Shown in pieces: positions 1,805 through 20,691 of a stretch of DNA of 64,000 bases; position 1 is the first letter of the stretch, and every line of letters starts with the position of its first letter. The notes beneath the pieces were generated by a model. The model saw only the letters and a list, made by a program, of their open reading frames with translations. It ran no database searches and was not told the origin of the DNA. The translations under genes and the position numbers were made by a program. The stretch comes from Candidatus Hydrogenedentota bacterium. Lineage in GTDB: Bacteria > Hydrogenedentota > Hydrogenedentia > Hydrogenedentales > SLHB01. Location: the NCBI GenBank assembly GCA_045863295.1, contig BTWA01000006.1:96001-160000 (forward strand), read 5' to 3'.

Positions 1805-4561
1805 CTAGGCCGTGTGCGCGCCCGTTGCGCGCGTCTTTCGTTGTACCCACAGCAGAAGAATGAATGTGACGCCGGCAACGACAATGAGCGCCCATTCTTC
1901 CGGCTCCGGTATTCCTGGGATCGATTCCATATTCTCAGAGGGATCCAGCCCGAACTCTTCGTACTGCGCGGCCTGTTCCAATACCACAGCCCCCGTCAGT
2001 GGAGTTACGAGACGCGACGTAGCCGCCAGGCTCGCGACGGGTTCAATTTCCTGGGTGAGATGTCCTTGATGCACCTTCCATGCATGGTCGGCTATGGCCA
2101 ATCGGGCCAAATGCCCCGTGGCGAAACCAATGACCGGTGAGACCGCGGCTTCCGGAGTAGCAGTAATAGAAAAATGGTGAGTCACCTCTCCTGGAGCCAG
2201 CCGGGCCAGTGCAAATGCCAGTGTCGCTTCGAGTGACTCCAATTGGGGTACCCGGAAAACACCCCCTATCTCCCCCAACTGTTCCAACACGCGATTAGGC
2301 CCTTGCACGGCTTCGATGGTCAGCAGTCTGGAAGGCGCCCCATCCCCACCCATCGCGCGCCGACGGTTCCATTGCCTTATGCCTTCGATCGAGGAGAGTT
2401 CTACAGGAAGCGGCCCGTGGACCCACACAATTGACGCACGGTTCGCGCTGGCCAATTCCCACGCTTTTTCCAGGGCGGGAATTGGATCGCACCCGCCGCG
2501 GTATATCCGGTCGTCCAGCCAAGTGGCCATATCGGTACCGGGCACTTGAAACCCCCGTCCATATACTTCGACTTCCTGCCCTGCAAAAATGGCCGCCACT
2601 TCGGCTTGGCGCGGGAGTTGTTCCATAAGGCGGCTCCAATTCAGCGGCAAAGCCCTCATCGACGCCGAACCGTCAACCACAAGGCAATACTTCTCACCCT
2701 CGCGCGCCTGCCCGGCGGCTGGCTCCACACTCATAGATGCTTCCGTCTGTTGGAGCACATCACGCCAACGTGTACCAGTAATTGTTCCTTGTTCGACCTC
2801 GACTATGCCGGAATTCGGCGACTGCAGTGACTCTTCGCTTAACTCTCCGCGGAGCATCGACCATCCGTTCACCGGTGTATGGGAAGTCAGCATGGGACTC
2901 TTGGCGCGAACTGTAGAATCGCATTCTACCCAGATGTCATGACGGAATTCCGGCAAAACGGTGAAATTGCGCTCGCTGAAATAAGGCATTCGCAAGTAGC
3001 CGGTGCCGTTGCGAATTACCAGCGGCGCAGTGATCCCAATCTTCAGTTTCATGGTGGACTGAGGCTGGACAGGAAAGCACTGGAGCAACAACTTGTCGGG
3101 ACCGGCGATATTCAGCAGCGCCGGATCTCGTCGCCTTACTACGGCTACCTTCTGGTAGGCTTCGCGCACTTGCTGGCGCGCGCCAAACGCCGCCTCGCGT
3201 TCTTCACCTTCTATCCACAATGTCAGCCGGCTCGCGACTCCGCCATGTGGCAACTCAATTTGAGCCCGGGCTTCCCTCTGGTTATCGGAATCGTTCCGGA
3301 ATTCGATTATCCATTCCATATACGCCAAAGCCGGGTCGCCCGACTCGCCCCCCAAATGCACAATATTCGCATCAATATGGCTGCCTCGAAGGCTAAGGCC
3401 AGCTACCCGGCCGGCAACCGCCATTCCCCCGACCTCGCTGTCGGCAATACGTTCTTCCTCAAGCGTACCGATATCGGCCAGGGTGCGCGATACCTTCATT
3501 TTCGGCCTGGGGACGCTGTTGTACGGTTGTCCGGTCATCCTGAAGTACAATTCGCGACTTCCCGCAAGCCGGGACACCTCGGACTCAGACCAACGCCGAT
3601 TTCCAGGCAATCCGATCCCGATTGGTCGGTAACAAGTCTTAAGGACGGTCTCTTCCAAGCTGAGCGCCTGCAGCCACCAGAATCCTCTCGATCGCGAGTC
3701 CTTATCCGCGGAAATAGCCATATCGATGAGCTTGCGTGACAGCAATTCGGGTCCCGCATAACCGGCCGTTAACAGCACTACAACGGCTGCCCCACCGGCT
3801 GAACGCAAAATCGCTTTGCGTACAGGAAACTCAGCATGACTGGAAATGTGGATGTAGAAGCGTCGCATCTGAGCAAGTGAACAGGCGAGACAAAATACAG
3901 GAGAAAAGCCCATAATCCCGGCGCCAAAACCCAATATGGCAAACGTTGCGACCGGAATTATAGGGAGGTATATGAGCGTATAGATCAATGAAAGACCGAC
4001 GGCATAGGCATTGAGAAACAGGACCCACTCGGGCCAACGAATGTGTCCGCTGCGGCCGGCCATTCGTAGTGACATGTCGCTAACCACGATCGATCCAATG
4101 AGGACAAGGCCGGCAACGATATGCCATACGGTCGGAATTGGATCGACGAAAATTGTGGCCATGACCCCCGTAAACAACTCGAATCCCATCGAAAGCAGGG
4201 GTATCGCAACGCCAAATAGATAAATGAGCACACTCGTGCCAATACCGGTCGCGGCTTGCTCTTGAAGCGGCTTCGTGCCATTCCCGTTTGTACCTTGGAC
4301 CGCGGGAGTGGCGCACTGGGAAGGTGGTTGGGTTGATTCAGTACCAAGGATATCTTCGGGGCTCCCCATGGCCGCCAAGGCCCGTTGAACATGTTCGAGC
4401 GTAACAACCGAGCCAGAATGCTTTTCCGCTTCGGTCCGTATGTGGATGCTCAGGCCTTCGACGATCTCGCCGGTGTCTTCGCCCCGGCTTTCGGATATGC
4501 GTCCAACGGTTGATAGGTACTCGTCGAGGCGTTCCTTCGCTTCAGGCGTCCAGTTCGACAT
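1805..4561 (-). CDS. VIT/vWA-like domain membrane protein with N-terminal HAAS/DUF1700-like domain and C-terminal PEP-CTERM sorting signal
   Basis: N-term LDEYL...EIVEGLSIHI...ALAAMGSPEDI; about 6 TMs; VIT-type segment EARAQIELPHGGVASRLTLWIEGEEREAAF...RRDPALL; vWA-like LVVDGSASM; tail IPEPEEWALIVVAGVTFILLLWVQRK. Start MSNWT at 4561 overlaps the padR end. Confidence 0.85.
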   Translation of the reverse strand: MSNWTPEAKERLDEYLSTVGRISESRGEDTGEIVEGLSIHIRTEAEKHSGSVVTLEHVQRALAAMGSPEDILGTESTQPPSQCATPAVQGTNGNGTKPLQEQAATGIGTSVLIYLFGVAIPLLSMGFELFTGVMATIFVDPIPTVWHIVAGLVLIGSIVVSDMSLRMAGRSGHIRWPEWVLFLNAYAVGLSLIYTLIYLPIIPVATFAILGFGAGIMGFSPVFCLACSLAQMRRFYIHISSHAEFPVRKAILRSAGGAAVVVLLTAGYAGPELLSRKLIDMAISADKDSRSRGFWWLQALSLEETVLKTCYRPIGIGLPGNRRWSESEVSRLAGSRELYFRMTGQPYNSVPRPKMKVSRTLADIGTLEEERIADSEVGGMAVAGRVAGLSLRGSHIDANIVHLGGESGDPALAYMEWIIEFRNDSDNQREARAQIELPHGGVASRLTLWIEGEEREAAFGARQQVREAYQKVAVVRRRDPALLNIAGPDKLLLQCFPVQPQSTMKLKIGITAPLVIRNGTGYLRMPYFSERNFTVLPEFRHDIWVECDSTVRAKSPMLTSHTPVNGWSMLRGELSEESLQSPNSGIVEVEQGTITGTRWRDVLQQTEASMSVEPAAGQAREGEKYCLVVDGSASMRALPLNWSRLMEQLPRQAEVAAIFAGQEVEVYGRGFQVPGTDMATWLDDRIYRGGCDPIPALEKAWELASANRASIVWVHGPLPVELSSIEGIRQWNRRRAMGGDGAPSRLLTIEAVQGPNRVLEQLGEIGGVFRVPQLESLEATLAFALARLAPGEVTHHFSITATPEAAVSPVIGFATGHLARLAIADHAWKVHQGHLTQEIEPVASLAATSRLVTPLTGAVVLEQAAQYEEFGLDPSENMESIPGIPEPEEWALIVVAGVTFILLLWVQRKTRATGAHTA

Positions 4562-4919
4562 TGTTCTTCTCGCTTTCAAGCAACTGCCCAATACCCTGCA
4601 CCAATTCGGTCCAGTAGGTGCCCATCATTTCCACGGAATTCCGTCCTTCCGCAGTCAGTGCATAATATTTGCGCGCGGGACCTTCCGGAGATTCTTCGAG
4701 GCGGGATGTTACGAGTCCAGCGCTTTTTAGACGCGAAAGGAGCGGATAGATTGTGCCATCGGTGATCGCCAACGCCTTGATGCCGGCCAGGCGTTTGACC
4801 AGGTCGTAGGCATACATTTCGCCTTCGGCCAACTGGGCGACGATGCAGAGCTCAAGAAGTCCCTTGCGGACTTGGGTAACCCAGTTGGAGATGTCGAAGG
4901 ATGTCTCTTGATTAGCCAT
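4542..4919 (-). CDS. PadR-family transcriptional regulator
   Basis: QVRKGLLELCI, YAYDL, GTIYPLLSRL, ESPEGPARKYYALT motifs. Confidence 0.93.
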   Translation of the reverse strand: MANQETSFDISNWVTQVRKGLLELCIVAQLAEGEMYAYDLVKRLAGIKALAITDGTIYPLLSRLKSAGLVTSRLEESPEGPARKYYALTAEGRNSVEMMGTYWTELVQGIGQLLESEKNNVELDA

Positions 4920-4938
4920 AAATTCTCGTCTCGTTGAA

Positions 4939-4971
4939 ATAATATAACAAACTACCTTGTATTGCAAGAAC
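4939..4971 (-). promoter_or_regulatory. sigma70-like promoter of padR with overlapping imperfect palindrome (candidate PadR operator)
   Basis: Minus strand TTGCAA (4967-4962)-N17-TATTAT (4944-4939); inverted repeat CTTG-tattg-CAAG (4956-4968) overlaps the -35. Confidence 0.55.
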
Positions 4972-5188
4972 AATTGCAAATAGTCTTGATTTATCTGTAA
5001 AATATTTATCTATATATATTTAGATAAAGGGCCTGTCGGCGCTCTCGGCGTGCAGTTGTGGCTCAAAAGAGTCGATCTACCTTTAAACCACTGCTGGCAT
5101 CACTCTCCGCAAAATTGCTCCACAAACGGAATTGCTCAGGATCCATGTATAATTCGCAGATAGCGCCTACCCGGAAGGATTACCCTGC

Positions 5189-6778
5189 GTGCCCATTAGT
5201 TCGCCTGTCTCCTCGGCTTCAAAATCACTGGTACCTTTTGTGTTCATGGCCCTTGCGTTGCTTTGGCCTGCCGTCGTGTATCACGTGCTTCCTCTCAAAG
5301 GGCAAGTCCATGCCACGGATTCCGTATCCTATACTCAAATGGCGAAGGGTATACTTCACTGGCCGGATGAGCCGATTGGACTGCGGTTCCTGGATTGGGA
5401 CGGTAAATCCCCAACATTTAATTCGACCTTTCCGGTCGGTTATCCCTTGTTGATTGCCTTGGTTTCCCTGTCTGGCATCCCAATTGCCATCTCAGCCCTG
5501 CTGGTTCCGTTTTTATGTTATTGTCTGAATGGACTGCTGTTCTATCTTATCGCTTCACGACTAACCAATGCGCGCACGGGCCTCGCCGTTTCAATTCTTG
5601 CTTCATTTGCGTTTCCTTTCCTGGATGTCGCCTGGACGGCTTGGTCGGAGACGCCCGCAATTACCTCGACCCTTTTCGCGTTCCTGGTTCTGGCGATAAT
5701 CGAGGCAGAAGCGGTTCCGAAAGATGCGGTCTGGCCGTATACCCTGGCCGGTTTGGCTGCTGGGTTTACGTTCTGTATTCGCTACGCCATGTTGCCGTTT
5801 CCGTGTGCATTTGTGTTAGCAATTGCCTGGGGACGGTGGAAGCATGTCATTACCACAAGACAAGCGGTGGCGGGTATCGCCGGTTGCTGTGGACTGGTGA
5901 GTGGATTGCTTGTGATGAACTCGACTCTGTCGGGAAATGCCATGGGACCTTATCGGCACCCGGCTGAGGAGTCATTCGCAAAAAATGCGGCAACCGTAGT
6001 GAACCATCTCACCTATACCGTCACGGGCGTTTGGGGTGAGTTGAGCCGGCCTGTGCTCGCAGGTCTTGTGTTGATTTCGTTCACTGCGATTGCCCTTGCC
6101 TGCGCTTACTGGGCATTGGATACGCTCGTTCGGGGGAAAGCGGGCACGTTTTATTGGACCTCCTTGCTTTTTGCAGGCGGGTATCCGGCGTTCATCGTCG
6201 TTTCCCGCTCCCTGAAGCAGTACGACCCCATCGACATACGCTTCATGGTCCCATTTCTGGCGGTATATGTCCTGCTGTTCCTGACCCCATCCGTCCACGC
6301 AATCCTCGAGGGGGAAACGAACCGCCTAAAACGCGCTGCCTCGGTATGTATCGCTGGGTCTTTCCTGCTTGGATTTCCACTCACTTGGATTCACGAACCG
6401 GACCAGCACCATTCCACGCGCTGGCATTTGAACCTAGGTACGGATCGCCCTGATTTCGCTGCGCTCTCCGCGTCAGTGTCCGAAGATAGAGCGGCGTTGA
6501 TTACGGTGTCACACGAGATGGCCTACATCTGGGATCGCGGTCCTTCCGTAATTATCGACCCACAATCCCTTCAGGCGGACGACGAACGGGTCGCGGAATT
6601 TACCCGACGGGTGGGCATGCCTGTCTATTTCTATGTTCCCTACGATCATCCCGAGTTTACCCCGGCGGAATTCGGCCCGTTCGTCGAAGAACTCTTCGCG
6701 GGAACGGCCGGTGGGAATGCCGAAATGCTGCATGACTCGGGCAAGGCTAAACTATGGCGGCTGCGCGCCGGTATATAG
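5189..6778 (+). CDS. GT-C fold membrane glycosyltransferase (ArnT/PMT, GT39/GT83-like)
   Basis: DSVSY in first loop, FPVGYPLLIA, WSETP, GLAAGFTFCIRY; more than 10 TMs. Confidence 0.75.
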   Translation: MPISSPVSSASKSLVPFVFMALALLWPAVVYHVLPLKGQVHATDSVSYTQMAKGILHWPDEPIGLRFLDWDGKSPTFNSTFPVGYPLLIALVSLSGIPIAISALLVPFLCYCLNGLLFYLIASRLTNARTGLAVSILASFAFPFLDVAWTAWSETPAITSTLFAFLVLAIIEAEAVPKDAVWPYTLAGLAAGFTFCIRYAMLPFPCAFVLAIAWGRWKHVITTRQAVAGIAGCCGLVSGLLVMNSTLSGNAMGPYRHPAEESFAKNAATVVNHLTYTVTGVWGELSRPVLAGLVLISFTAIALACAYWALDTLVRGKAGTFYWTSLLFAGGYPAFIVVSRSLKQYDPIDIRFMVPFLAVYVLLFLTPSVHAILEGETNRLKRAASVCIAGSFLLGFPLTWIHEPDQHHSTRWHLNLGTDRPDFAALSASVSEDRAALITVSHEMAYIWDRGPSVIIDPQSLQADDERVAEFTRRVGMPVYFYVPYDHPEFTPAEFGPFVEELFAGTAGGNAEMLHDSGKAKLWRLRAGI

Positions 6779-13751: not shown

Positions 13752-15017
13752 TTATACGGGCCGGTCGTAAATCTTCTCGGGGCCACGGAAGGGGTCGTAG
13801 ACCGTAATCCCTTCCGGTCCGAAACCCGCTGTAACGTGCGCCCCTTTGCCCGACTCGAAATACGAGAAATTGCGGCGAATTACTTCGCGCGCCGCCTGCA
13901 CGATCAACGCAGTCAAGCGGCCCTCTTCCGCGTCCGGGTAAGACCCTCTTAATGCCTCCGTGCTCCGGCCCAGAAACTTGATTTCAGAAACTTTGGCCAG
14001 ACAGACTACGAGACTGTCAATACCGTAGCCAACATAGGCGTGGCTGCCGTCTTCTCGCCGGACGTCGCGTGTAAAATGACTATTGCGAGTCTGAGTCCCT
14101 TTGCCTTGCTCATGGTAACGCAGACCCCTGTACTGTGAATCGGATTCGATCATTCCGCGCGTGCCGCAAATCATGCTTTCCTGATTCACGGGCGCCTCGA
14201 ATTCATCCGGAACAATCCAATTGTTTACAAAATCGATGCTCATGCCGTTATCAAACTGAATCTTGACCTGAACGGAATCAAAGGCGTCCATGCCATATTC
14301 TTGGCGCAATTTTACTTTCTGGCCCACCGCATGCAGACTTACCGGCTTCACGCCAAAATAGGAAATGAATAGATCCGTCCAATGACAACCGACATAACTG
14401 AACGGATCGCTTTGCTCAGCCCACTTCCGGAACACCTGCGTGGATATCGATAGCGGCTCTTCCAAAACCGCCCGTCCGTACAGCGGTGTCCCAATACGCT
14501 TCGACAAATCGTCGCGAATGCGCAAATGGTCGGGGTCGTAGCGTTTGTGCATATCGACCCCGACCAGACAATGAGACTCACGCGCGGCAGCAACAATGGC
14601 GTCCGCTTCATACCCGTCCAGTGTCATGGGCTTTTCGGTAATCACATGGACACCGCGCTTCAAGGCCGCAAGTATCGGTGCGGCATGCAAATGGTCTGGC
14701 GTGGCGACCGCCAGCACATCCAAATCCGGATGCTCGTTGAGCATGTCTTCCCAAGGAGTCTCGCCATGATATAGCGCGAATTCCATCCCTTGGGGAGCAT
14801 ACTCCCGCAATTTGGATTGGCCTGTCTGTTCCGACCGGGTCGCCAAAGCAATGAAACGGATTTCCACGTCACCCAAGGGTCGGGCAAGCGTGTCCAACCC
14901 CAACCGGCCCAGCCAGGGAGTTAGTCCATTCAAGTGCAATTGGCAAAATGTGCGCATGTGCACATCGCCGCCAAACATTCCCGCGCCAACCAGGCCAACC
15001 GTCAGAACCCGGGTCAT
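13752..15017 (-). CDS. Gfo/Idh/MocA-family oxidoreductase
   Basis: LVGAGMFG, VATPDHLH, TEKPM, DMHKRYDP. Confidence 0.88.
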   Translation of the reverse strand: MTRVLTVGLVGAGMFGGDVHMRTFCQLHLNGLTPWLGRLGLDTLARPLGDVEIRFIALATRSEQTGQSKLREYAPQGMEFALYHGETPWEDMLNEHPDLDVLAVATPDHLHAAPILAALKRGVHVITEKPMTLDGYEADAIVAAARESHCLVGVDMHKRYDPDHLRIRDDLSKRIGTPLYGRAVLEEPLSISTQVFRKWAEQSDPFSYVGCHWTDLFISYFGVKPVSLHAVGQKVKLRQEYGMDAFDSVQVKIQFDNGMSIDFVNNWIVPDEFEAPVNQESMICGTRGMIESDSQYRGLRYHEQGKGTQTRNSHFTRDVRREDGSHAYVGYGIDSLVVCLAKVSEIKFLGRSTEALRGSYPDAEEGRLTALIVQAAREVIRRNFSYFESGKGAHVTAGFGPEGITVYDPFRGPEKIYDRPV

Positions 15018-15046
15018 GCCCCACTCCACTTCCTAAAGTAAACGAA

Positions 15047-16075
15047 TTAAATCGCCTCTTCCGCGGCGCCATCCGCGGGTGCCGCCGGTGGCGTCACCTG
15101 CAAATCGGTGACAAGGATGTCAATCTTTAAGGCCGCCTTGCCATCCGCGACAACCTTTTCAATGTGCTCCATTTGCTTCTGACCGGTCAGACCCTCGCGA
15201 ATCTTGCCCGACGCCTCTTCCTTGCTCACTTGGCCCTTCGCTGTGACCGTAAGGAAGTGCCAACCAAACTGCGTCTTGAAAGGTGCCGAGACTTTGCCCA
15301 CTTCGGTGCCGAACGCCACGGACTCAAACTCCGGAACCATCACACCACGAACTACGTTGTCGTAGGCGCCACCATTGTCTTTCGATCCGGGATCGTCGGA
15401 GACTTCCTTGGCCACGTCAGCAAACGCTTCACCATCCGTCACGCGCTTGTGCGCCGCATCAATTTCGACCTTTGCGGTCGTCCAGGCATCTTCGGATGGG
15501 TCATCCACCTTAACCAGAATGTGCGCCACGTTCACCGAATCCAGCTCACCCGCAGTCTTCGACTTTTCGTATTGAGCCTCTATATCTGCATCCGTGACTT
15601 GGACCTCATCCATCTTGGCTTGGGTAAACGCACGAATAGCGCCGCCGCGCGCAATCATGTCCCGAAAGTCAGCTTCCGTAAGTCCTTCAGACTTGAGCGC
15701 GTCCTCGAACGACATACCGGCTGGCATGTTCTTTTTCGTTTCGGCAACCTTGCTATCGATTTCATCGTCTTTCAACGCGAAACCTTCTTTTTGCGCCAGA
15801 ATGAAAAGCACATGATTATCAATCAGGGAATCCAAAATATTCTTCATCTGCTCGGCGGTGAACGCCTCCGGCGGCTCGCTCCCGGTCATCTGGGCCTGCA
15901 TCGCCTGGCGCTGGCGAATCATGGCGATCGCCTTGTCAAACTCCTTCTGGGTCACGGTCTCCGTATCGCCTACCTTGGCAATGACGGCCTCCTCGGCCAT
16001 GGCCGGCGAAACTGCCAACGCGGCAGCCGCTACGCCTGCGGCGACAACGAGGGGCTTCAGAAACGACAAACGCAT
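15047..16075 (-). CDS. Exported parvulin peptidyl-prolyl isomerase (SurA/PrsA-like)
   Basis: Signal peptide ending AMA-EE; HILVK, FADVAKEVSDDPGSKDNGG, MVPEFE, KTQFGWH. Confidence 0.92.
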   Translation of the reverse strand: MRLSFLKPLVVAAGVAAAALAVSPAMAEEAVIAKVGDTETVTQKEFDKAIAMIRQRQAMQAQMTGSEPPEAFTAEQMKNILDSLIDNHVLFILAQKEGFALKDDEIDSKVAETKKNMPAGMSFEDALKSEGLTEADFRDMIARGGAIRAFTQAKMDEVQVTDADIEAQYEKSKTAGELDSVNVAHILVKVDDPSEDAWTTAKVEIDAAHKRVTDGEAFADVAKEVSDDPGSKDNGGAYDNVVRGVMVPEFESVAFGTEVGKVSAPFKTQFGWHFLTVTAKGQVSKEEASGKIREGLTGQKQMEHIEKVVADGKAALKIDILVTDLQVTPPAAPADGAAEEAI

Positions 16076-16348
16076 ACACTGGTCTCCTGGAGCAGGATTT
16101 ATTTGACCTGCTTGTTAACGCGAAACCACGGGGACGGCATGGCCTGGACTGGCTTCAGCAAGGCGTCATGCATTGCGACAGGCAACGAGACGTATGTGGT
16201 TTGCAGCTAAGGACGATTTGGCTTCAGCTTTCTTGAATTTCGATTCTGACGCTGTGGACTCTGCCAGAAGCGCTATACTTTAAATCCGCAGCAATTTTGA
16301 TTCTATGTAAGTAATACCGAATTCAGTGGCCTGCACCTGGCCAAGTCT

Positions 16349-17398
16349 TTACAGGTCCACCGGCCTACCAGTCTCCGCCGATCGATAAATTGCTTCTATT
16401 AGCTCGACTGCGCGCCGGCCTTCCCGGCCCACGATGGCGGGCTCCCGTCCGTCGCGAATGGCAAGCGCAAAATCCTCAATCTGCCTGCGATGCGCTTCGT
16501 GCTTGAGATTGGCCAGTGGATCCGCCGCGCCGGAACCTGTTGCACTGCCCTGATTCAACCGATCCACGATGGCCTTGTCTTCCGGAAGCTCATTCTTGAA
16601 CTTCCACGATACAATTTCGCCATCTTCCAAGACAACCGAACCCTCGGTCCCATGAATCTCCACGCGAGCAGGATGTCCCGGCCAGATCGCTGTACTCCCC
16701 TCAATACAGCCCATGGCCCCGTTCTCAAATTGAAGCATCGCGCACGCCAAGTCTTCGACTTCCAGCCCCTCATGACCTACCAAAGCCGTTTGAGCTGTGA
16801 CGCGCTTCACAGGGCCAAAGTACCAAAGAAGCAAGTCGATCTGGTGAATACCCTGGTTCATTAGACACCCACCGCCATCGAGCTTACGGGTACCGCGCCA
16901 AGCCCCACTATTGTAATACTCTTGGGACCGATACCACTTAATGTACGCATCGCCTAGCACCAATTTGCCAAATCGGCCAGAGTTCAGGGCGCGTTGGATC
17001 TCCCTGGGTCCGTCCGCGAAACGGTACTGAAAGATGCACCCCAACAAAACATTCGCTTCATCTACGGCCGCAAGTATTCGATCAATACGGTCAGTCGATA
17101 CTTCCAACGGCTTTTCAGACAAAATGTGTTTGCCGGCTTTGGCGCAAACCTCGGCAATTTCCGCCCGCATTCCGCTCGGCACGCAGAGACTGACCGCATG
17201 CAAATCCGGCCGCTGTATCATTTCTTTGTAATCCGAATAGACATCCGCGCCGTACTTCCCCGCTAGCGCTTCGGCATTCTTGGGAACCACGTCGGACACG
17301 GCAACGAGCTTTGCAGACGGTATTTCGGATATGGCAAGGGCATGAATCGGGCCGATATTTCCGCATCCAATTAACCCGAAGCCAATTCGGTCAGCCAT
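16349..17398 (-). CDS. Gfo/Idh/MocA-family oxidoreductase
   Basis: IGCGNIG, SEKPL, WRGTRKLDGGGCLMNQGIHQID. Confidence 0.92.
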   Translation of the reverse strand: MADRIGFGLIGCGNIGPIHALAISEIPSAKLVAVSDVVPKNAEALAGKYGADVYSDYKEMIQRPDLHAVSLCVPSGMRAEIAEVCAKAGKHILSEKPLEVSTDRIDRILAAVDEANVLLGCIFQYRFADGPREIQRALNSGRFGKLVLGDAYIKWYRSQEYYNSGAWRGTRKLDGGGCLMNQGIHQIDLLLWYFGPVKRVTAQTALVGHEGLEVEDLACAMLQFENGAMGCIEGSTAIWPGHPARVEIHGTEGSVVLEDGEIVSWKFKNELPEDKAIVDRLNQGSATGSGAADPLANLKHEAHRRQIEDFALAIRDGREPAIVGREGRRAVELIEAIYRSAETGRPVDL

Positions 17399-17497
17399 TG
17401 TGTACACCTTTCTTCATACGGGCACCCCAAGCCTAGCCTGTCGGATCCCACGATTGGGCTGCAAAAGCAGATATGATGAAGGGCGAAACATGGCAAT

Positions 17498-18484
17498 TCA
17501 AGCTGTAGTTTCCCCGTCACCGTTCAAATCCGCTTTCCGCAGGGCTGATCTTCGTGTGCGAAACAATAAAAGCAACCCCAGACCGAGAGCGGCGAGCCCG
17601 ATCCATTGGGACACGGCCAAACCGCCGATCACGTACACCCGGGTGGCCAGAAGGCTATCGAGGGTCAAACGCAATACCCCGTAGGATAGGAGCACAAAGG
17701 CAAGCGTCGCACCCCGACATGGACCCTTCCGATAGATCTGCTCTGCCACAATCCCCAATGCCAAGGCAGCCAACGAGAAAAGAATCGGCGTGGGCCAAAC
17801 CGGAAGGCTTCGCGTCTGACCCGCGAGATGCGCGATGTCGGTTGCGCTCTTGCCTGAGACTTCGTCCGGAAAGCGGTCCAATAATCGTTGAAACTGCTCA
17901 CGGCGCAAATGCAGGAACTGTTCGTGGCCCCAGAGGTTGGTTTCGCCTTCCGCGGTGGTGTGAACCAATCCGCGAGGGGGCACAATCAAATTGGAGCGCC
18001 ATTGGGTCTCATACGGTGTGCTTCCATAGGGATAGGTTATGCCCAGATAGGCAGGCGCAAGGCCACCGGCACAGCACCCGGCAAATACGCATCCCCATTT
18101 AGCCACCGCAAGACCAAGTAGTGCCGAAGGAGCGAGCGCGTCGAGATAGTCGACCGCTTTGAGTCGCAGTGGCGCGAGTCCAATCAACAATGCTACTCCT
18201 GCGCCAATGGCAAATACCGTAAAGGAGGACGGTGCCTTTTGAAAAGGAGAGAACACACGCAAGCCCAATGCCTCGTGCCGAGGATCAAACAACAGGGTGG
18301 ACCGGCTCAACATCCATCCGCATAACAACGCCACGGACAGCATGGGGATGAGTAAAATAAAGTGTATGTCGTCCCTTTTGACACGCCAGAATAGGGTGGC
18401 AAGCGCGGTCAATACGGCAAGTAGTATAGCTGTCGAATAGGCGCCGATGTATGTATTGCCTATGGAAAACAGAACCGGACGCAC
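17498..18484 (-). CDS. Divergent prolipoprotein diacylglyceryl transferase (Lgt) paralogue
   Basis: Start (M)RPVLFSIG..AY; DALAPSALLGLAVAKWGCVFAGCCAG; GITYPYGS; SLPVWPT; YGVLRL.LD; SQWIGL. The Lgt scaffold is recognisable but several canonical motifs are altered. Confidence 0.82.
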   Translation of the reverse strand: MRPVLFSIGNTYIGAYSTAILLAVLTALATLFWRVKRDDIHFILLIPMLSVALLCGWMLSRSTLLFDPRHEALGLRVFSPFQKAPSSFTVFAIGAGVALLIGLAPLRLKAVDYLDALAPSALLGLAVAKWGCVFAGCCAGGLAPAYLGITYPYGSTPYETQWRSNLIVPPRGLVHTTAEGETNLWGHEQFLHLRREQFQRLLDRFPDEVSGKSATDIAHLAGQTRSLPVWPTPILFSLAALALGIVAEQIYRKGPCRGATLAFVLLSYGVLRLTLDSLLATRVYVIGGLAVSQWIGLAALGLGLLLLFRTRRSALRKADLNGDGETTA

Positions 18485-18494
18485 CTGTGTCACC

Positions 18495-18536
18495 TAAAAA
18501 CGTTGGAGACACCCCACTTGGAAAGGGTGTCTCCAA
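18495..18536 (-). terminator. Terminator-like hairpin between the peptide gene and the lgt paralogue
   Basis: 12-bp stem TTGGAGACACCC (18503-18514) / GGGTGTCTCCAA (18525-18536), followed on the minus strand by CGTTTTT, then AGGTG (RBS) and the lgt start. Confidence 0.7.
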
Positions 18537-18578
18537 TTTGCCAAAGTTTCTATGCCGCACAAACGCGCGGCACGTCTG

Positions 18579-18776
18579 CTACACTTCCAGTCCCGCCGCT
18601 TCAAGTTCGGCAAGGCACTCTTCCAACGTAATATCTTCCAAACTTACGTCGTCGCCCGTGTCGCCCGAATCGTCCGTTTCGTCCGCATGCGAAAGCAACG
18701 AAGGGCCAAACAACGCCAGCACAAGCGCCAGCAAACCACTTCCTAGCATCCATTTCCAACTCTTTGACTTGCTCAT
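18579..18776 (-). CDS. 65-aa secreted acidic peptide with a single Cys
   Basis: AGGAGG RBS. Basic N-region, hydrophobic core, SHA-D cleavage site. Mature part DETDDSGDTGDDVSLEDITLEECLAELEAAGLEV. Confidence 0.8.
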   Translation of the reverse strand: MSKSKSWKWMLGSGLLALVLALFGPSLLSHADETDDSGDTGDDVSLEDITLEECLAELEAAGLEV

Positions 18777-18852
18777 GCGATTCCTCCTGATTGCGGTGCA
18801 ATCTTGCGGGAGATGCCCTGTCTACGAATCCCCCGGCCGTCCACACACCTAC

Positions 18853-18880
18853 AGTATATCGAAACGGCACGATTATGCAA
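18853..18880 (-). promoter_or_regulatory. Candidate sigma70 promoter of the peptide gene
   Basis: Minus strand TTGCAT (18880-18875)-N16-TATACT (18858-18853). Confidence 0.55.
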
Positions 18881-18913
18881 AGACGTAACAAACAAAGAGT
18901 GGCCAACAACTTC

Positions 18914-20446
18914 CTAAGACTTGGCGGGCAAGGAGCGAATTCCCCCGCGCAACGAGAATACGTTTGGATATCCCTGTTTGTGGAACACCCGCGCTGCACT
19001 TCGGCTGCGGTGTCCATGGCTACAGCACAACACATAGGACCGGTCACATTCAAAAGGCGGAGAGGCAAAATCGATGCGGCTGAGGGGAACGGATAGTACG
19101 GCGCTCAGGGAAATCGGTTCGCGCTCAACCTCGTCCAATTCTCGCACGTCAACCAACGTGAACCTTTCTATCGTCCCAATGAGAATCTGCTGGTAGTCAA
19201 GCTCTATGGACTCGTCCGGCCCGTAATTCTCCGGGGACAAATCGGATATGGAAGGATTCGCCCCGCACACCGGACACCCGGAACTCTTTTCAATGACCAC
19301 CTTCCGTATACTCAGATCCAGACAATCCACGATTGCAATTCCATTGACTGGGCCTCCCGGAATAGCCAAGAGTTGACGCAAGGCTTCCATGGCCTGCATG
19401 GCCCCGAGAATTCCCGGAATAGCCCCAAGCACACCCACCTCGGCACACGTACCCACACAGCCCGGATCCGGCATGGTCGGCCAAAGGCACCGCAGACACG
19501 CCGATTCCCCAGGAACATAAACCTGAATCTGGCCTTCAAATTGATAAAGGCTGCCAAAAACTGCCGGCATACCCAGTAAGACTGCAGCGTCGTTGATGAG
19601 AAATTTTGTCGGAAAATTGTCCGTGCAGTCGAGCACCAAATCATACTGGTTGAATAGGGAATACGCGTTTTCGGCCGTGAGACGATGATCGTGTTGGCGC
19701 AATTCTATACCCGGATTCAGCGCTCGAAGTCGATGAAGGGCAAGTTCGATCTTCGGCTTACCAACGTCGATGGCGCTGTACAAGGGCTGACGATGCAAAT
19801 TGCTGATATCCAACGAGTCGGATTCACACAGGCCGAGAACGCCGATTCCCGCGGACGCCAGATAAGTTGCTGCGGGAGAACCCAACCCACCCAGCCCCAC
19901 AACAAGTACGCGGGCGTTGGCCAGTCTATGTTGTCCGTCTGTACCGATTTCGCGAAGCCGGATTTGACGGTCGTAATACAGAGCCGGATCGGGTGCAACG
20001 CTCGATCCCACTGGGCCATGTCCGTGTGCAGCGCAACGCTCGCAATTGACCCACCCCGAATTCCCGTCGATGTAGTACTCCTTTTTCCATATGGGTACTC
20101 GGTGCTTGACCTCGTCTATAATGTACCGGCAGGCTTTGAACGCCTCGTCGCGATGTGCGGAAACCGCACCTACCCAGACGGCCATGTCGCCAATGCCCAG
20201 CCCGCCAATGCGATGTACGCAGTGCGCGGTGATCAACCCGAAACGGCGAATGGCGTCCTCAACAATCCTGCACCCCTCAGCGACGGCCATCGACTCGTAG
20301 GCTTCATATTCCAGCCGGGTAACTGCTTTACCCTCGTTATGATTACGAACCCAGCCTTCAAACGATGTGAAGGCTCCGGCTTCAGGCGCAATCATCGTTG
20401 CTTTTAATGTGGCGGTGTCGATGGTGTCTTGACTCAATGAAAACAC
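18914..20446 (-). CDS. moaE/moeB: MoaE-MoeB(ThiF)-rhodanese fusion
   Basis: MoaE HRIGGL..SAHRDEAF..IDEVKHRVPIWKKE; MoeB YDRQIRL, GLGGLGSP, SNLHRQ, DCTDN, CLRC, CPVC; rhodanese VDVRE..CCSHGHRS..SLRGG. GTG start 2 nt after the moaD stop. Confidence 0.9.
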   Translation of the reverse strand: MFSLSQDTIDTATLKATMIAPEAGAFTSFEGWVRNHNEGKAVTRLEYEAYESMAVAEGCRIVEDAIRRFGLITAHCVHRIGGLGIGDMAVWVGAVSAHRDEAFKACRYIIDEVKHRVPIWKKEYYIDGNSGWVNCERCAAHGHGPVGSSVAPDPALYYDRQIRLREIGTDGQHRLANARVLVVGLGGLGSPAATYLASAGIGVLGLCESDSLDISNLHRQPLYSAIDVGKPKIELALHRLRALNPGIELRQHDHRLTAENAYSLFNQYDLVLDCTDNFPTKFLINDAAVLLGMPAVFGSLYQFEGQIQVYVPGESACLRCLWPTMPDPGCVGTCAEVGVLGAIPGILGAMQAMEALRQLLAIPGGPVNGIAIVDCLDLSIRKVVIEKSSGCPVCGANPSISDLSPENYGPDESIELDYQQILIGTIERFTLVDVRELDEVEREPISLSAVLSVPLSRIDFASPPFECDRSYVLCCSHGHRSRSAARVFHKQGYPNVFSLRGGIRSLPAKS

Positions 20447-20448
20447 CG

Positions 20449-20691
20449 TTAGCCTCCCGCCACCGGAGGAACGAAGACGACCGTGTCGCCTTCGGACAGC
20501 GGTGTGTCCCAATCGCCAAACGTCTCGTTAATCGCTACCTTAAGTTGTTCAAGGTGCAAAGTAAATCCATGAGTTCGCTGCAATTCACCGTACAAAGCGC
20601 GGGGAGTGGACGCCGTTGTACGCACCTCTTCAGCGGAAAGGCCTCGCTGCTCGCGCATCAACGCAAAATATCGTACATGGACAGTAATCAT
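20449..20691 (-). CDS. moaD: Molybdopterin synthase sulfur carrier subunit
   Basis: VRYFALMRE; C-terminal PPVAGG. Confidence 0.93.
   Translation of the reverse strand: MITVHVRYFALMREQRGLSAEEVRTTASTPRALYGELQRTHGFTLHLEQLKVAINETFGDWDTPLSEGDTVVFVPPVAGG

Follow-up and report, generated by a model that had tools for sequence, protein, structure and literature searches.

Lgt is viewed as a housekeeping enzyme that has one purpose and takes its specificity from the lipobox. This view raises the question of what a divergent Lgt paralogue may be doing directly behind a small gene that encodes a secreted, acidic peptide with one cysteine and no lipobox. This arrangement is found in a 64,000-nucleotide stretch of a Candidatus Hydrogenedentota genome (assembly GCA_045863295.1, contig BTWA01000006.1, positions 96,001 to 160,000 of the forward strand; hereafter the window, from whose first letter unprefixed coordinates are counted). 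A first-pass annotation, made from the letters and their open reading frames (ORFs), had proposed that the paralogue is dedicated to this peptide, either lipidating its internal Cys or serving as its membrane receptor or carrier. Here, we followed both genes through their relatives, and the comparison of sequences suggests a Cys-directed modification of the lipoprotein type that would obey the logic of peptides made by the ribosome and modified after translation (RiPPs), in a layout of which our searches found no description.

Relatives of the enzyme were gathered from 60 related genomes, from one genome per GTDB species, from metagenome contigs and from 135 genomes of the phylum, and the region upstream of each was translated and searched for small ORFs. 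In every one of the 13 distinct loci of the enzyme's tight clade with an intact 5′ end (the window, its paralogue on contig C12 of the same genome, G034, G011, G053, G118, L063, L140, L142, L143, L148, L145 and L147), one to five peptides are encoded upstream on the same strand, and the distance between peptide and enzyme gene ranges from 44 to 171 nucleotides across the clade loci. Close homologues that lack an upstream peptide, or whose peptide lacks a conserved Cys, had been named at the outset as grounds for abandoning the proposal, and none appeared among these 13. The sole tight-clade locus without a peptide, L144, is 100% identical to L141 from nucleotide 594 and unrelated to it before; as its enzyme gene, too, has lost its 5′ end, it was left out as a chimeric or truncated contig. 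All 13 loci thus present the arrangement of a RiPP-type pair, namely short precursors, conserved in the leader and variable in the core, beside a candidate modifying enzyme, and the tandem hypervariable copies seen in two of them (five in G011, an array labelled L009, and four in L147) fit this RiPP-like reading.

The pairing also holds across whole genomes. The enzyme clade is present in five of the 135 phylum genomes, and the peptide profile finds matches at E <= 1e-6 in six, namely all five that bear the enzyme and G013, whose contig ends 98 nucleotides past the peptide stop (in the related locus L142 the enzyme gene begins at 171 nucleotides). Three weaker matches were not counted as family peptides: one has an internal stop (G084, E 3.9e-4), one sits in a 655-residue frame (G012, E 6.7e-4) and one lies in a 162-residue protein (G118:C76, E 5.4e-4). 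Across 12 loci, the only shared neighbour of at least 80 residues is the Lgt paralogue itself: no third conserved gene was found around the module, and no exporter, kinase or regulator is conserved near it. The safest conclusion, which we hold with high confidence, is that the peptide(s) and the Lgt paralogue form one functional unit, and that this module is a rare, conserved two-gene system. The named relatives belong to Candidatus Hydrogenedentota, with single metagenome-assembled genomes labelled Planctomycetales and Nitrospirales; one relative, P0003, at 43% identity, sits on a 6.6-Mb contig.

The peptide family became visible only through upstream translation and profile building. When 17 peptides are aligned, no columns are invariant but four: the initial Met, a Trp, the Pro of an LFxP motif and a Cys in the tail. 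The leaders share one to five Lys or Arg residues in the n-region, the Trp, with which the hydrophobic stretch begins, and, five to eight residues past the LFxP proline, an A-x-A-like site with Ala at -1 (cleavage sites being predicted by the -3/-1 rule). When the leader profile was built with neither peptide of the source genome, the C12 peptide still came first and the window peptide second out of 140,885 six-frame segments from that genome (E 7e-5 and 7e-4; next 1.2), which argues that the leader is not merely this organism's usual signal peptide. The full profile matched 26 of 224 loci, all of them in the tight clade (26 of 27, the missed one being L144), and gave no match in the roughly 197 non-clade loci (21,251 segments); the G118 peptide, which was outside the training set, was matched at E 2.6e-11 and has one Cys. 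Likewise, no such upstream peptide was seen by heuristic inspection of 37 distant Lgt-like loci with a GCxxxGCCxG signature, among 40 loci examined of 78, in agreement with the profile scan; these distant proteins come mostly from Actinomycetota and are extended at the N-terminus. As a separate observation, many Actinomycetota (L064-L138, e.g. L066, L072 and L077) encode Lgt-family proteins of 400-570 residues with a long N-terminal extension and this same signature, and no leader peptides were seen upstream of them.

Past the conserved leader (M, W, LFxP), the cores cannot be aligned apart from their Cys. Exactly one Cys is present in 22 of 24 tails, the other two, orthologues ending in CCI, having an adjacent pair; for a Cys to be present in each of the 19 distinct tails, the probability is about 7e-12, given 1.39% Cys in the genome and treating the tails as independent. 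The predicted mature parts measure 14-44 residues, with net charges from -14 to +1 (18 of 24 negative). A lipobox ([LVI][ASTVI][GAS]C) is absent from all peptides, the tail Cys being preceded by residues such as LEE, WGE, IDQ, PET or YR; four leaders do have a Cys within the h-region, with T, V or A-after-I at -1/-2, which is not conserved. Cores differ between paralogues, and orthologues retain theirs through drift of the leader and linker: L142, L143, L148 and G013 have KGQYTWLPECLE in common, L009a and P0155 RCPIPATGDVL, and L145 and P0164 QGWWIHPCCI. Precursors of RiPPs and pheromones are built in this way, from a leader that is conserved, a linker that varies and a core that is specific to the paralogue and conserved among orthologues.

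Pfam and NCBIfam hold no model for these peptides, and the ESM Atlas gave no usable feature match for the window peptide, its structural neighbours being generic small helical proteins. TatA/TatE models do match two of the 17 leaders, those of L142 and L145 (best E-values 5.9e-6 with NCBIfam and 9.8e-5 with Pfam), through the W..L..VVL.LFGP transmembrane segment, and leave the window peptide unmatched. TatA would be marked by a transmembrane helix leading into an FGxKKLP hinge and an amphipathic helix, with the N-terminus outside. We rejected this identity: the N-terminus is rich in Lys and Arg, and the KKLP hinge is absent. Because the charge distribution is opposite to that of TatA, the likeness, which concerns transmembrane helices only, is judged convergent.

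As for the enzyme, the view that it is a divergent Lgt paralogue is borne out by family models: residues 6-311 match Pfam LGT (PF01790) at 56.2 bits (cut-off 24.9), and the score against the NCBIfam lgt equivalog TIGR00544 is 23.5 bits, far under the cut-off of 118.9. In a profile search of 1.84 billion cluster representatives, the tight clade comprises 15 proteins scoring 295-435 bits, the next best reaching 170, within a wider family of 10,479 proteins at E <= 0.001. An AlphaFold2 model (predicted local distance difference test score, pLDDT, 85.3; predicted template modelling score, pTM, 0.81) has a single Foldseek match in the PDB at E <= 0.001, E. coli Lgt 5AZB (E 1.4e-6, TM-scores 0.58/0.66), and the modelled architecture is consistent with the seven-helix body and periplasmic head of that structure. 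Residues were mapped by a HMMER alignment to 5AZB and by alignment with the other Lgts of the genome and with second-tier proteins. The clade keeps the equivalents of E. coli Y26, D129, P197, G154, Y235 and R239, and has Asp for E243; in its own numbering R275 and G143 (Arg239 and Gly154) are invariant, and Y271 and Y19 (Tyr235 and Tyr26) nearly so. At an overall identity of about 30-45%, the invariant residues of the central cavity are K132, C135, C140, C141, G143, R275, D279 and E251. Gained and invariant are a GW in the second transmembrane helix and the Glu E251 in the fifth. The signature region of the clade holds three or four conserved Cys, and the GCxxxGCCxG signature was considered as a mark of new chemistry and rejected: its presence in the canonical and second-tier Lgts, as in many distant ones, makes it a trait of the lineage and not of the clade.

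Housekeeping lipidation is provided for elsewhere in the source genome (G000; 6.3 Mb, 88 contigs, 96% complete). The first-pass annotation had named a sole lgt as a ground for refutation, and the window gene is not the only one. There are six PF01790 matches, one of which, at C6:59010-59825, passes TIGR00544 at 129.6 bits and directly adjoins one of two lspA genes (C6:59866-60291); this canonical pair lies on the same contig as the module, about 54 kb from it and about 37 kb before the start of the window. The canonical protein bears the signature GRIGCFLNGCCFG, has Gln at the position of His103 and lacks His103, Asn146 and Glu151. The second tight-clade member, on contig C12, is 35% identical to the window enzyme. 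Overall, the genome has four extra Lgt paralogues. Two of them lie together on another contig (L225, G000:C27:12500-20500; 2568-3419 on the plus and 4724-5473 on the minus strand), where they flank a 433-residue ORF that reads as glycosyltransferase-like by sequence alone; no leader-type peptide was found near these two.

Taken together, these observations lend themselves to the following scenario. The small proteins would be exported by Sec and held by their family leader in the inner membrane, with the N-terminus inside and the C-terminal tail reaching into the periplasm. The adjacent membrane protein of the Lgt fold would recognise the leader in place of a lipobox and move a lipid group, most likely diacylglyceryl by descent, from a membrane phospholipid onto the thiol of the single tail Cys. 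Signal peptidase I would then cut past the conserved Ala, releasing a short (14-44 residues), mostly anionic lipopeptide that may stay on the cell envelope or leave it, and that could act as a signal, as a surface-active agent or as an envelope peptide. We favour this reading, in which a dedicated, Lgt-derived transferase lipidates a non-lipobox Cys in a RiPP-like manner, and we hold it to be a plausible one, on the doubtful side of an even balance.

Several observations weigh against it. In lipoproteins the Cys occupies a fixed position at the membrane surface; here its position is variable, 6-43 residues past the predicted cleavage site and 1-14 from the C-terminus. Family peptides are also encoded away from the enzyme gene, G118 having four strong matches of this kind and G034 one, so that adjacency to the enzyme gene is not obligatory; the claim that the paralogue is dedicated to its neighbour thus stands as far as the conserved pairing goes and has to be loosened elsewhere, as the enzyme is probably not limited to the neighbouring peptide and the leader looks like a tag for recognition, effective in trans as well. 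The residues of the enzyme raise a further difficulty. At the position of Arg143, all 14 clade members examined have Lys (14/14), and Arg is kept there in the canonical copies of the source genome and in second-tier Lgts; N149 has become A, G or S, R246 a hydrophobic residue and G27 S or P, H196 is replaced, HP[ST]QLY has become [WLF]PxP, and the GGxxF[HYQ]GG segment that corresponds to E. coli HGGL is absent, with no GG at that position. In the study by Mao et al. (PMC4728403), Arg143 of E. coli Lgt is described as "absolutely conserved" and in contact with the phosphatidylglycerol under attack, the R143A/E/K variants and all H103 mutants tested are inactive, and H103GGL, at the start of the third transmembrane helix, is proposed to bind the lipobox peptide. 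The changes at Arg143, N149, H196, R246, G27 and HGGL imply that catalysis has possibly been lost or altered, and with the Arg-to-Lys exchange it is uncertain if the original chemistry, or any at all, has been retained; with an invariant Lys for Arg143 and HGGL gone, diacylglyceryl transfer looks less secure than the first-pass annotation had assumed. The loss of HGGL does fit substrates without a lipobox. The comparison with HGGL also carries a caveat, as the His103 position is Gln in the canonical Lgt of this genome and Tyr in second-tier Lgts; since this canonical enzyme does without His103, Asn146 and Glu151, several residues essential in E. coli are not universal, and the E. coli residue rules appear not to transfer cleanly to the Lgts of this lineage.

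Co-folding had been suggested as a check. Folding the enzyme and peptide alignments together gave a median score of 0.57 (runs 0.68, 0.57 and 0.52; best of three controls 0.01), with at least 69% of contacts shared between runs and a partner pLDDT of at least 54. This is above the pass mark, which is reached by 116 of the 157 solved complexes used for calibration, as against 2 of the 215 mismatched pairs, but a pass in this range is a weak one, as at scores of 0.60 or less only 18 of the 157 solved complexes passed, together with both passing mismatches. The models may thus be said to give weak support to a contact between enzyme and peptide.

The orphan peptides deserve a brief description of their own. 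One of them, on G118:C59 (L226, G118:C59:236600-242800), is encoded at 3020-3166 on the plus strand and has the core RCPGPATGDVQ. This region shows synteny to the G011 locus with five peptides, being flanked by genes for a Zn-ribbon and a beta-helix protein on either side, and at the position of G011's Lgt paralogue it encodes a 344-residue secreted protein without a Pfam match (3176-4210, plus strand), which looks like replacement or loss of the enzyme gene. The other orphans (L227-L230, on G118:C102, C11 and C105 and on G034:C202) have the same leader and one Cys, among unrelated neighbours (heparinase-like, DUF2851, isocitrate/isopropylmalate dehydrogenase and MotB). The source genome contains no orphan peptides of the family.

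Among the alternatives, one regards the paralogue as an Lgt-fold pseudoenzyme that transfers nothing and binds the leader or the peptide in the membrane, where it might escort, release or carry the peptide or resemble an immunity protein, the Cys being used otherwise, for instance in a disulfide dimer. The replacement of Arg143 by Lys, with R143K and H103 mutants inactive in E. coli, the loss of HGGL and of several residues of the polar network, and a co-fold that backs contact only, and weakly, all agree with such a role. Central-cavity residues that stay invariant at about 30-45% identity are nonetheless more typical of a working active site, an invariant single Cys within hypervariable cores is best explained by chemistry at that Cys, and mature charges of -14 to +1 are unlike those of the cationic membrane-active peptides that need an immunity protein; we regard a pseudoenzyme as unlikely, if still a serious contender. 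Slightly less likely in our eyes is an enzyme that does act on the Cys without transferring diacylglyceryl, by using another lipid head group or donor, by acylation through an enzyme-Cys thioester, or by a thioether or disulfide link to an envelope component. This would accord with the extensive replacement of the phosphatidylglycerol-binding network (R143, N149, E151, R246 and HGGL, whose roles are taken from PMC4728403), with the clade-specific gain of GW and E251 and with the conserved Cys of the signature region, but a Cys-rich signature is equally found in canonical and second-tier Lgts, and the literature search found no precedent for other chemistry in the Lgt family.

The peptides could also be unmodified Sec-secreted pheromones or bacteriocins, with a downstream membrane protein that is merely co-transcribed, whether for immunity or for an unrelated purpose. 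One or more peptides followed by a membrane protein would also suit a bacteriocin-immunity pair, and tandem variable copies are present here; yet the mature parts are anionic or neutral, the Lgt paralogue is the only conserved neighbour where an exporter, kinase or regulator might be looked for, the leader (invariant W, LFxP) is conserved far past the needs of export, and peptide and enzyme strictly co-occur, all of which makes this explanation quite improbable. That the small ORFs are no genes at all, or adjoin the enzyme by chance, might be suspected from their shortness and from the outcome of a single-sequence search of the 60 relatives with the window peptide, which returned nothing significant (best non-self E 0.017). 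Against this speak the 13 of 13 loci and the codon differences between close orthologues, which are biased toward synonymous ones (6:2, 9:6 and 12:4, synonymous to non-synonymous), along with 13 such proteins predicted by gene callers in a collection of 5.8 billion clusters, where the named sources call them "hypothetical protein", and, weakly, an RNA-library contig over the window gene (described below). With the leave-out profile, the independent G118 match, the 224-locus scan and the co-occurrence across genomes, this last suspicion is effectively refuted already and hardly credible.

If lipidation by the paralogue is indeed what happens, the Lgt scaffold would prove retargetable, since a paralogue would serve peptides without a lipobox; a membrane-embedded, periplasm-facing lipid transferase would join the modifiers of ribosomal peptides, and two genes would make a minimal route to genetically encoded lipopeptides. 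The clade would moreover be a natural experiment on which Lgt residues serve catalysis and which serve the choice of substrate (Arg143 to Lys, HGGL lost). More speculatively, and with somewhat greater reserve, the modules may define a new class of ribosomal lipopeptides, in which an Lgt-derived enzyme retargeted from lipobox to leader lipidates an internal Cys of hypervariable, Sec-exported peptides, the products being small anionic lipopeptides that act as strain-specific signals or as envelope or surface agents, and some precursors being encoded in trans. As the family is rare (15 of 1.84 billion representatives) and has so far been seen mainly in uncultured Hydrogenedentota-like bacteria, testing will depend on heterologous expression.

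The elements of the module in the window are listed in the table below. Much of what the first-pass annotation had said of the peptide can be read directly from the sequence: a 65-residue ORF behind an AGGAGG ribosome-binding site, a K-rich N-terminus followed by a hydrophobic stretch up to LFGPSLLSHA, a signal end SHA|DE without a lipobox, and a 34-residue predicted mature part that has a single Cys, lacks both K and R and counts 14 acidic residues (7 D and 7 E), for a net charge of -14. The enzyme gene follows after a spacer of 94 nucleotides. Its most likely start is the GTG at 18484, with AGGTGA 5 nucleotides upstream, since this start agrees with the database protein P0001 (328 residues) and with the MRPxLF start of the orthologues.

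Table. Features of the peptide-Lgt module in the window (coordinates within the window).
Feature	Position	Strand	Basis and remarks
Promoter-like site TTTGCA-17-TATACT	18853-18881	-	Promoter scan; about 77 nt 5′ of the peptide ATG
Ribosome-binding site AGGAGG of the peptide gene	18783-18788	-	6 nt before the ATG at 18774-18776
Precursor peptide gene, 65 residues + stop	18579-18776	-	Sequence, ORF list; leader family A2
Predicted Sec-type signal leader, 31 residues: K/R n-region, invariant Trp, LFGP, SHA at -3 to -1	18684-18776	-	
Predicted mature/core part, 34 residues	18582-18683	-	Single Cys = residue 54, codon 18615-18617
First intergenic hairpin, 9-bp stem	18552-18573	-	RNA folding
Second hairpin + T-run, terminator-like or attenuating	18493-18536 (13-bp stem 18503-18536)	-	RNA folding, terminator scan
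Divergent Lgt-family paralogue, 328 residues	17498-18484	-	Pfam LGT; ORF list begins at 18493

The regulatory elements fared less well than the genes. A promoter had been placed at TTGCAT-N16-TATACT; the site is there, shifted by one base and suitably placed with respect to the peptide ATG, and it is not above chance by itself, as the scan returned one site with 1.2 expected from shuffled sequences. A single 12-bp stem-loop with a U-tract had been drawn in the spacer, and we find two hairpins, the second of which has a 13-bp stem and is trailed by CGTTTTTAGG. The whole spacer of the window folds at -40 kcal/mol (z = -6.1), none of 200 shuffles folding equally well. Across ten loci, the spacer z-scores are -6.1, -1.5, 0.1, -2.7, -1.1, +1.5, -0.7, -1.8, +1.0 and +0.5, and only two spacers, those of the window and of L009, fold better than their shuffles (at most 1 in 200 as good). 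The order peptide-hairpin-enzyme, which the first-pass annotation had taken as a feature of the system, was rejected as a family feature on this count; attenuation may happen at the window hairpin without being system-defining. A search of 17300-19100 against Rfam gave only a sub-threshold match to a miRNA family (20 bits, with 51 required; E 0.79), which places the window hairpins in no known RNA family.

With regard to transcription, a 229-nucleotide contig from a library recorded as metatranscriptomic spans 18594-18822, that is the peptide gene and its 5′ leader, with 0 differences. DNA runs show similarly placed fragments, and carry-over of DNA may explain the RNA-labelled contig, which is at most a faint hint that the peptide gene is transcribed and has no bearing on the level of transcript or on termination at the hairpin; uncovered parts in these public-run contigs carry no meaning. 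Near-identical DNA of 17400-18950 (0-2 differences per contig) was found in sludge and activated-sludge metagenomes of other studies (runs X2 and X4), and the source organism apparently recurs in wastewater reactors.

Upstream of the module in the window, at 18914-20512 on the minus strand, lies a gene for a 532-residue triple fusion of MoaE, ThiF/MoeB and rhodanese, preceded further upstream by MoaD-like and MobA-like/MoaC ORFs of a molybdopterin cluster; the triple fusion is not kept beside the module in the other genomes. Downstream, at 13752-17407 on the same strand, are two GFO/IDH/MocA oxidoreductases and a SurA-like peptidyl-prolyl isomerase. The terminator scan returned no terminator-like site between the stop of the Lgt paralogue (17498) and the next gene, so that read-through into the latter is possible.

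How, then, does the module stand beside known systems? The claim that no system with this layout had been described agrees with our searches of the literature and of family libraries, which yielded none, and no paper was found that describes an Lgt paralogue dedicated to adjacent peptides. With E. coli Lgt (5AZB/5AZC, PF01790) the enzyme shares fold and family and, as proposed here, action on the Cys of a substrate held in the membrane by its signal peptide. It differs in being a paralogue beside a separate canonical lgt-lspA, encoded directly after its presumed substrates, which have no lipobox, a cleavage site of the signal peptidase I type and a Cys 6-43 residues further. The nearest described idea is that of the DAG-RiPPs such as DybA, which have a canonical lipobox, rely on housekeeping Lgt, LspA and Lnt, and are defined as a class by a cytoplasmic multinuclear non-haem iron-dependent oxidative enzyme, MNIO (PNAS 2026, PMC13056109; bioRxiv 10.1101/2025.10.31.685832). 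The module described here has no lipobox, no MNIO or other conserved neighbour, and an Lgt paralogue of its own.

Bufferins and other RiPPs with Sec leaders share with our peptides a Sec signal on a small Cys-containing precursor. For precursors of the bufferin type, modification falls to cytoplasmic MNIO enzymes. In the present module, by contrast, the sole partner is a membrane protein of the Lgt fold, whose active site would face the periplasmic leaflet (topology after PMC4728403).

A class II bacteriocin with its immunity protein, which would call for a cationic mature peptide, a double-glycine or Sec leader and a small partner, was considered and rejected, as the charges run from -14 to +1, with 18 of 24 negative, and the partner is a 320-residue Lgt-fold protein. 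In having a short, hypervariable, strain-specific peptide beside a dedicated modifying enzyme, ComX/ComQ and AgrD/AgrB come close to the arrangement seen here, but their enzyme families are unrelated to Lgt and no receptor kinase lies near the present loci. ComX is prenylated on a Trp in the cytoplasm and AgrD lacks a Sec signal; in Agr, a membrane enzyme carries out chemistry at a conserved Cys. The logic of recognition, finally, recalls exosortase/PEP-CTERM and rhombosortase/GlyGly-CTERM, where a membrane enzyme and a recognisable signal strictly co-occur and the targets are both adjacent and remote; in the present system, by contrast, the signal is N-terminal, the targets are small peptides only, and the enzyme belongs to the Lgt family.

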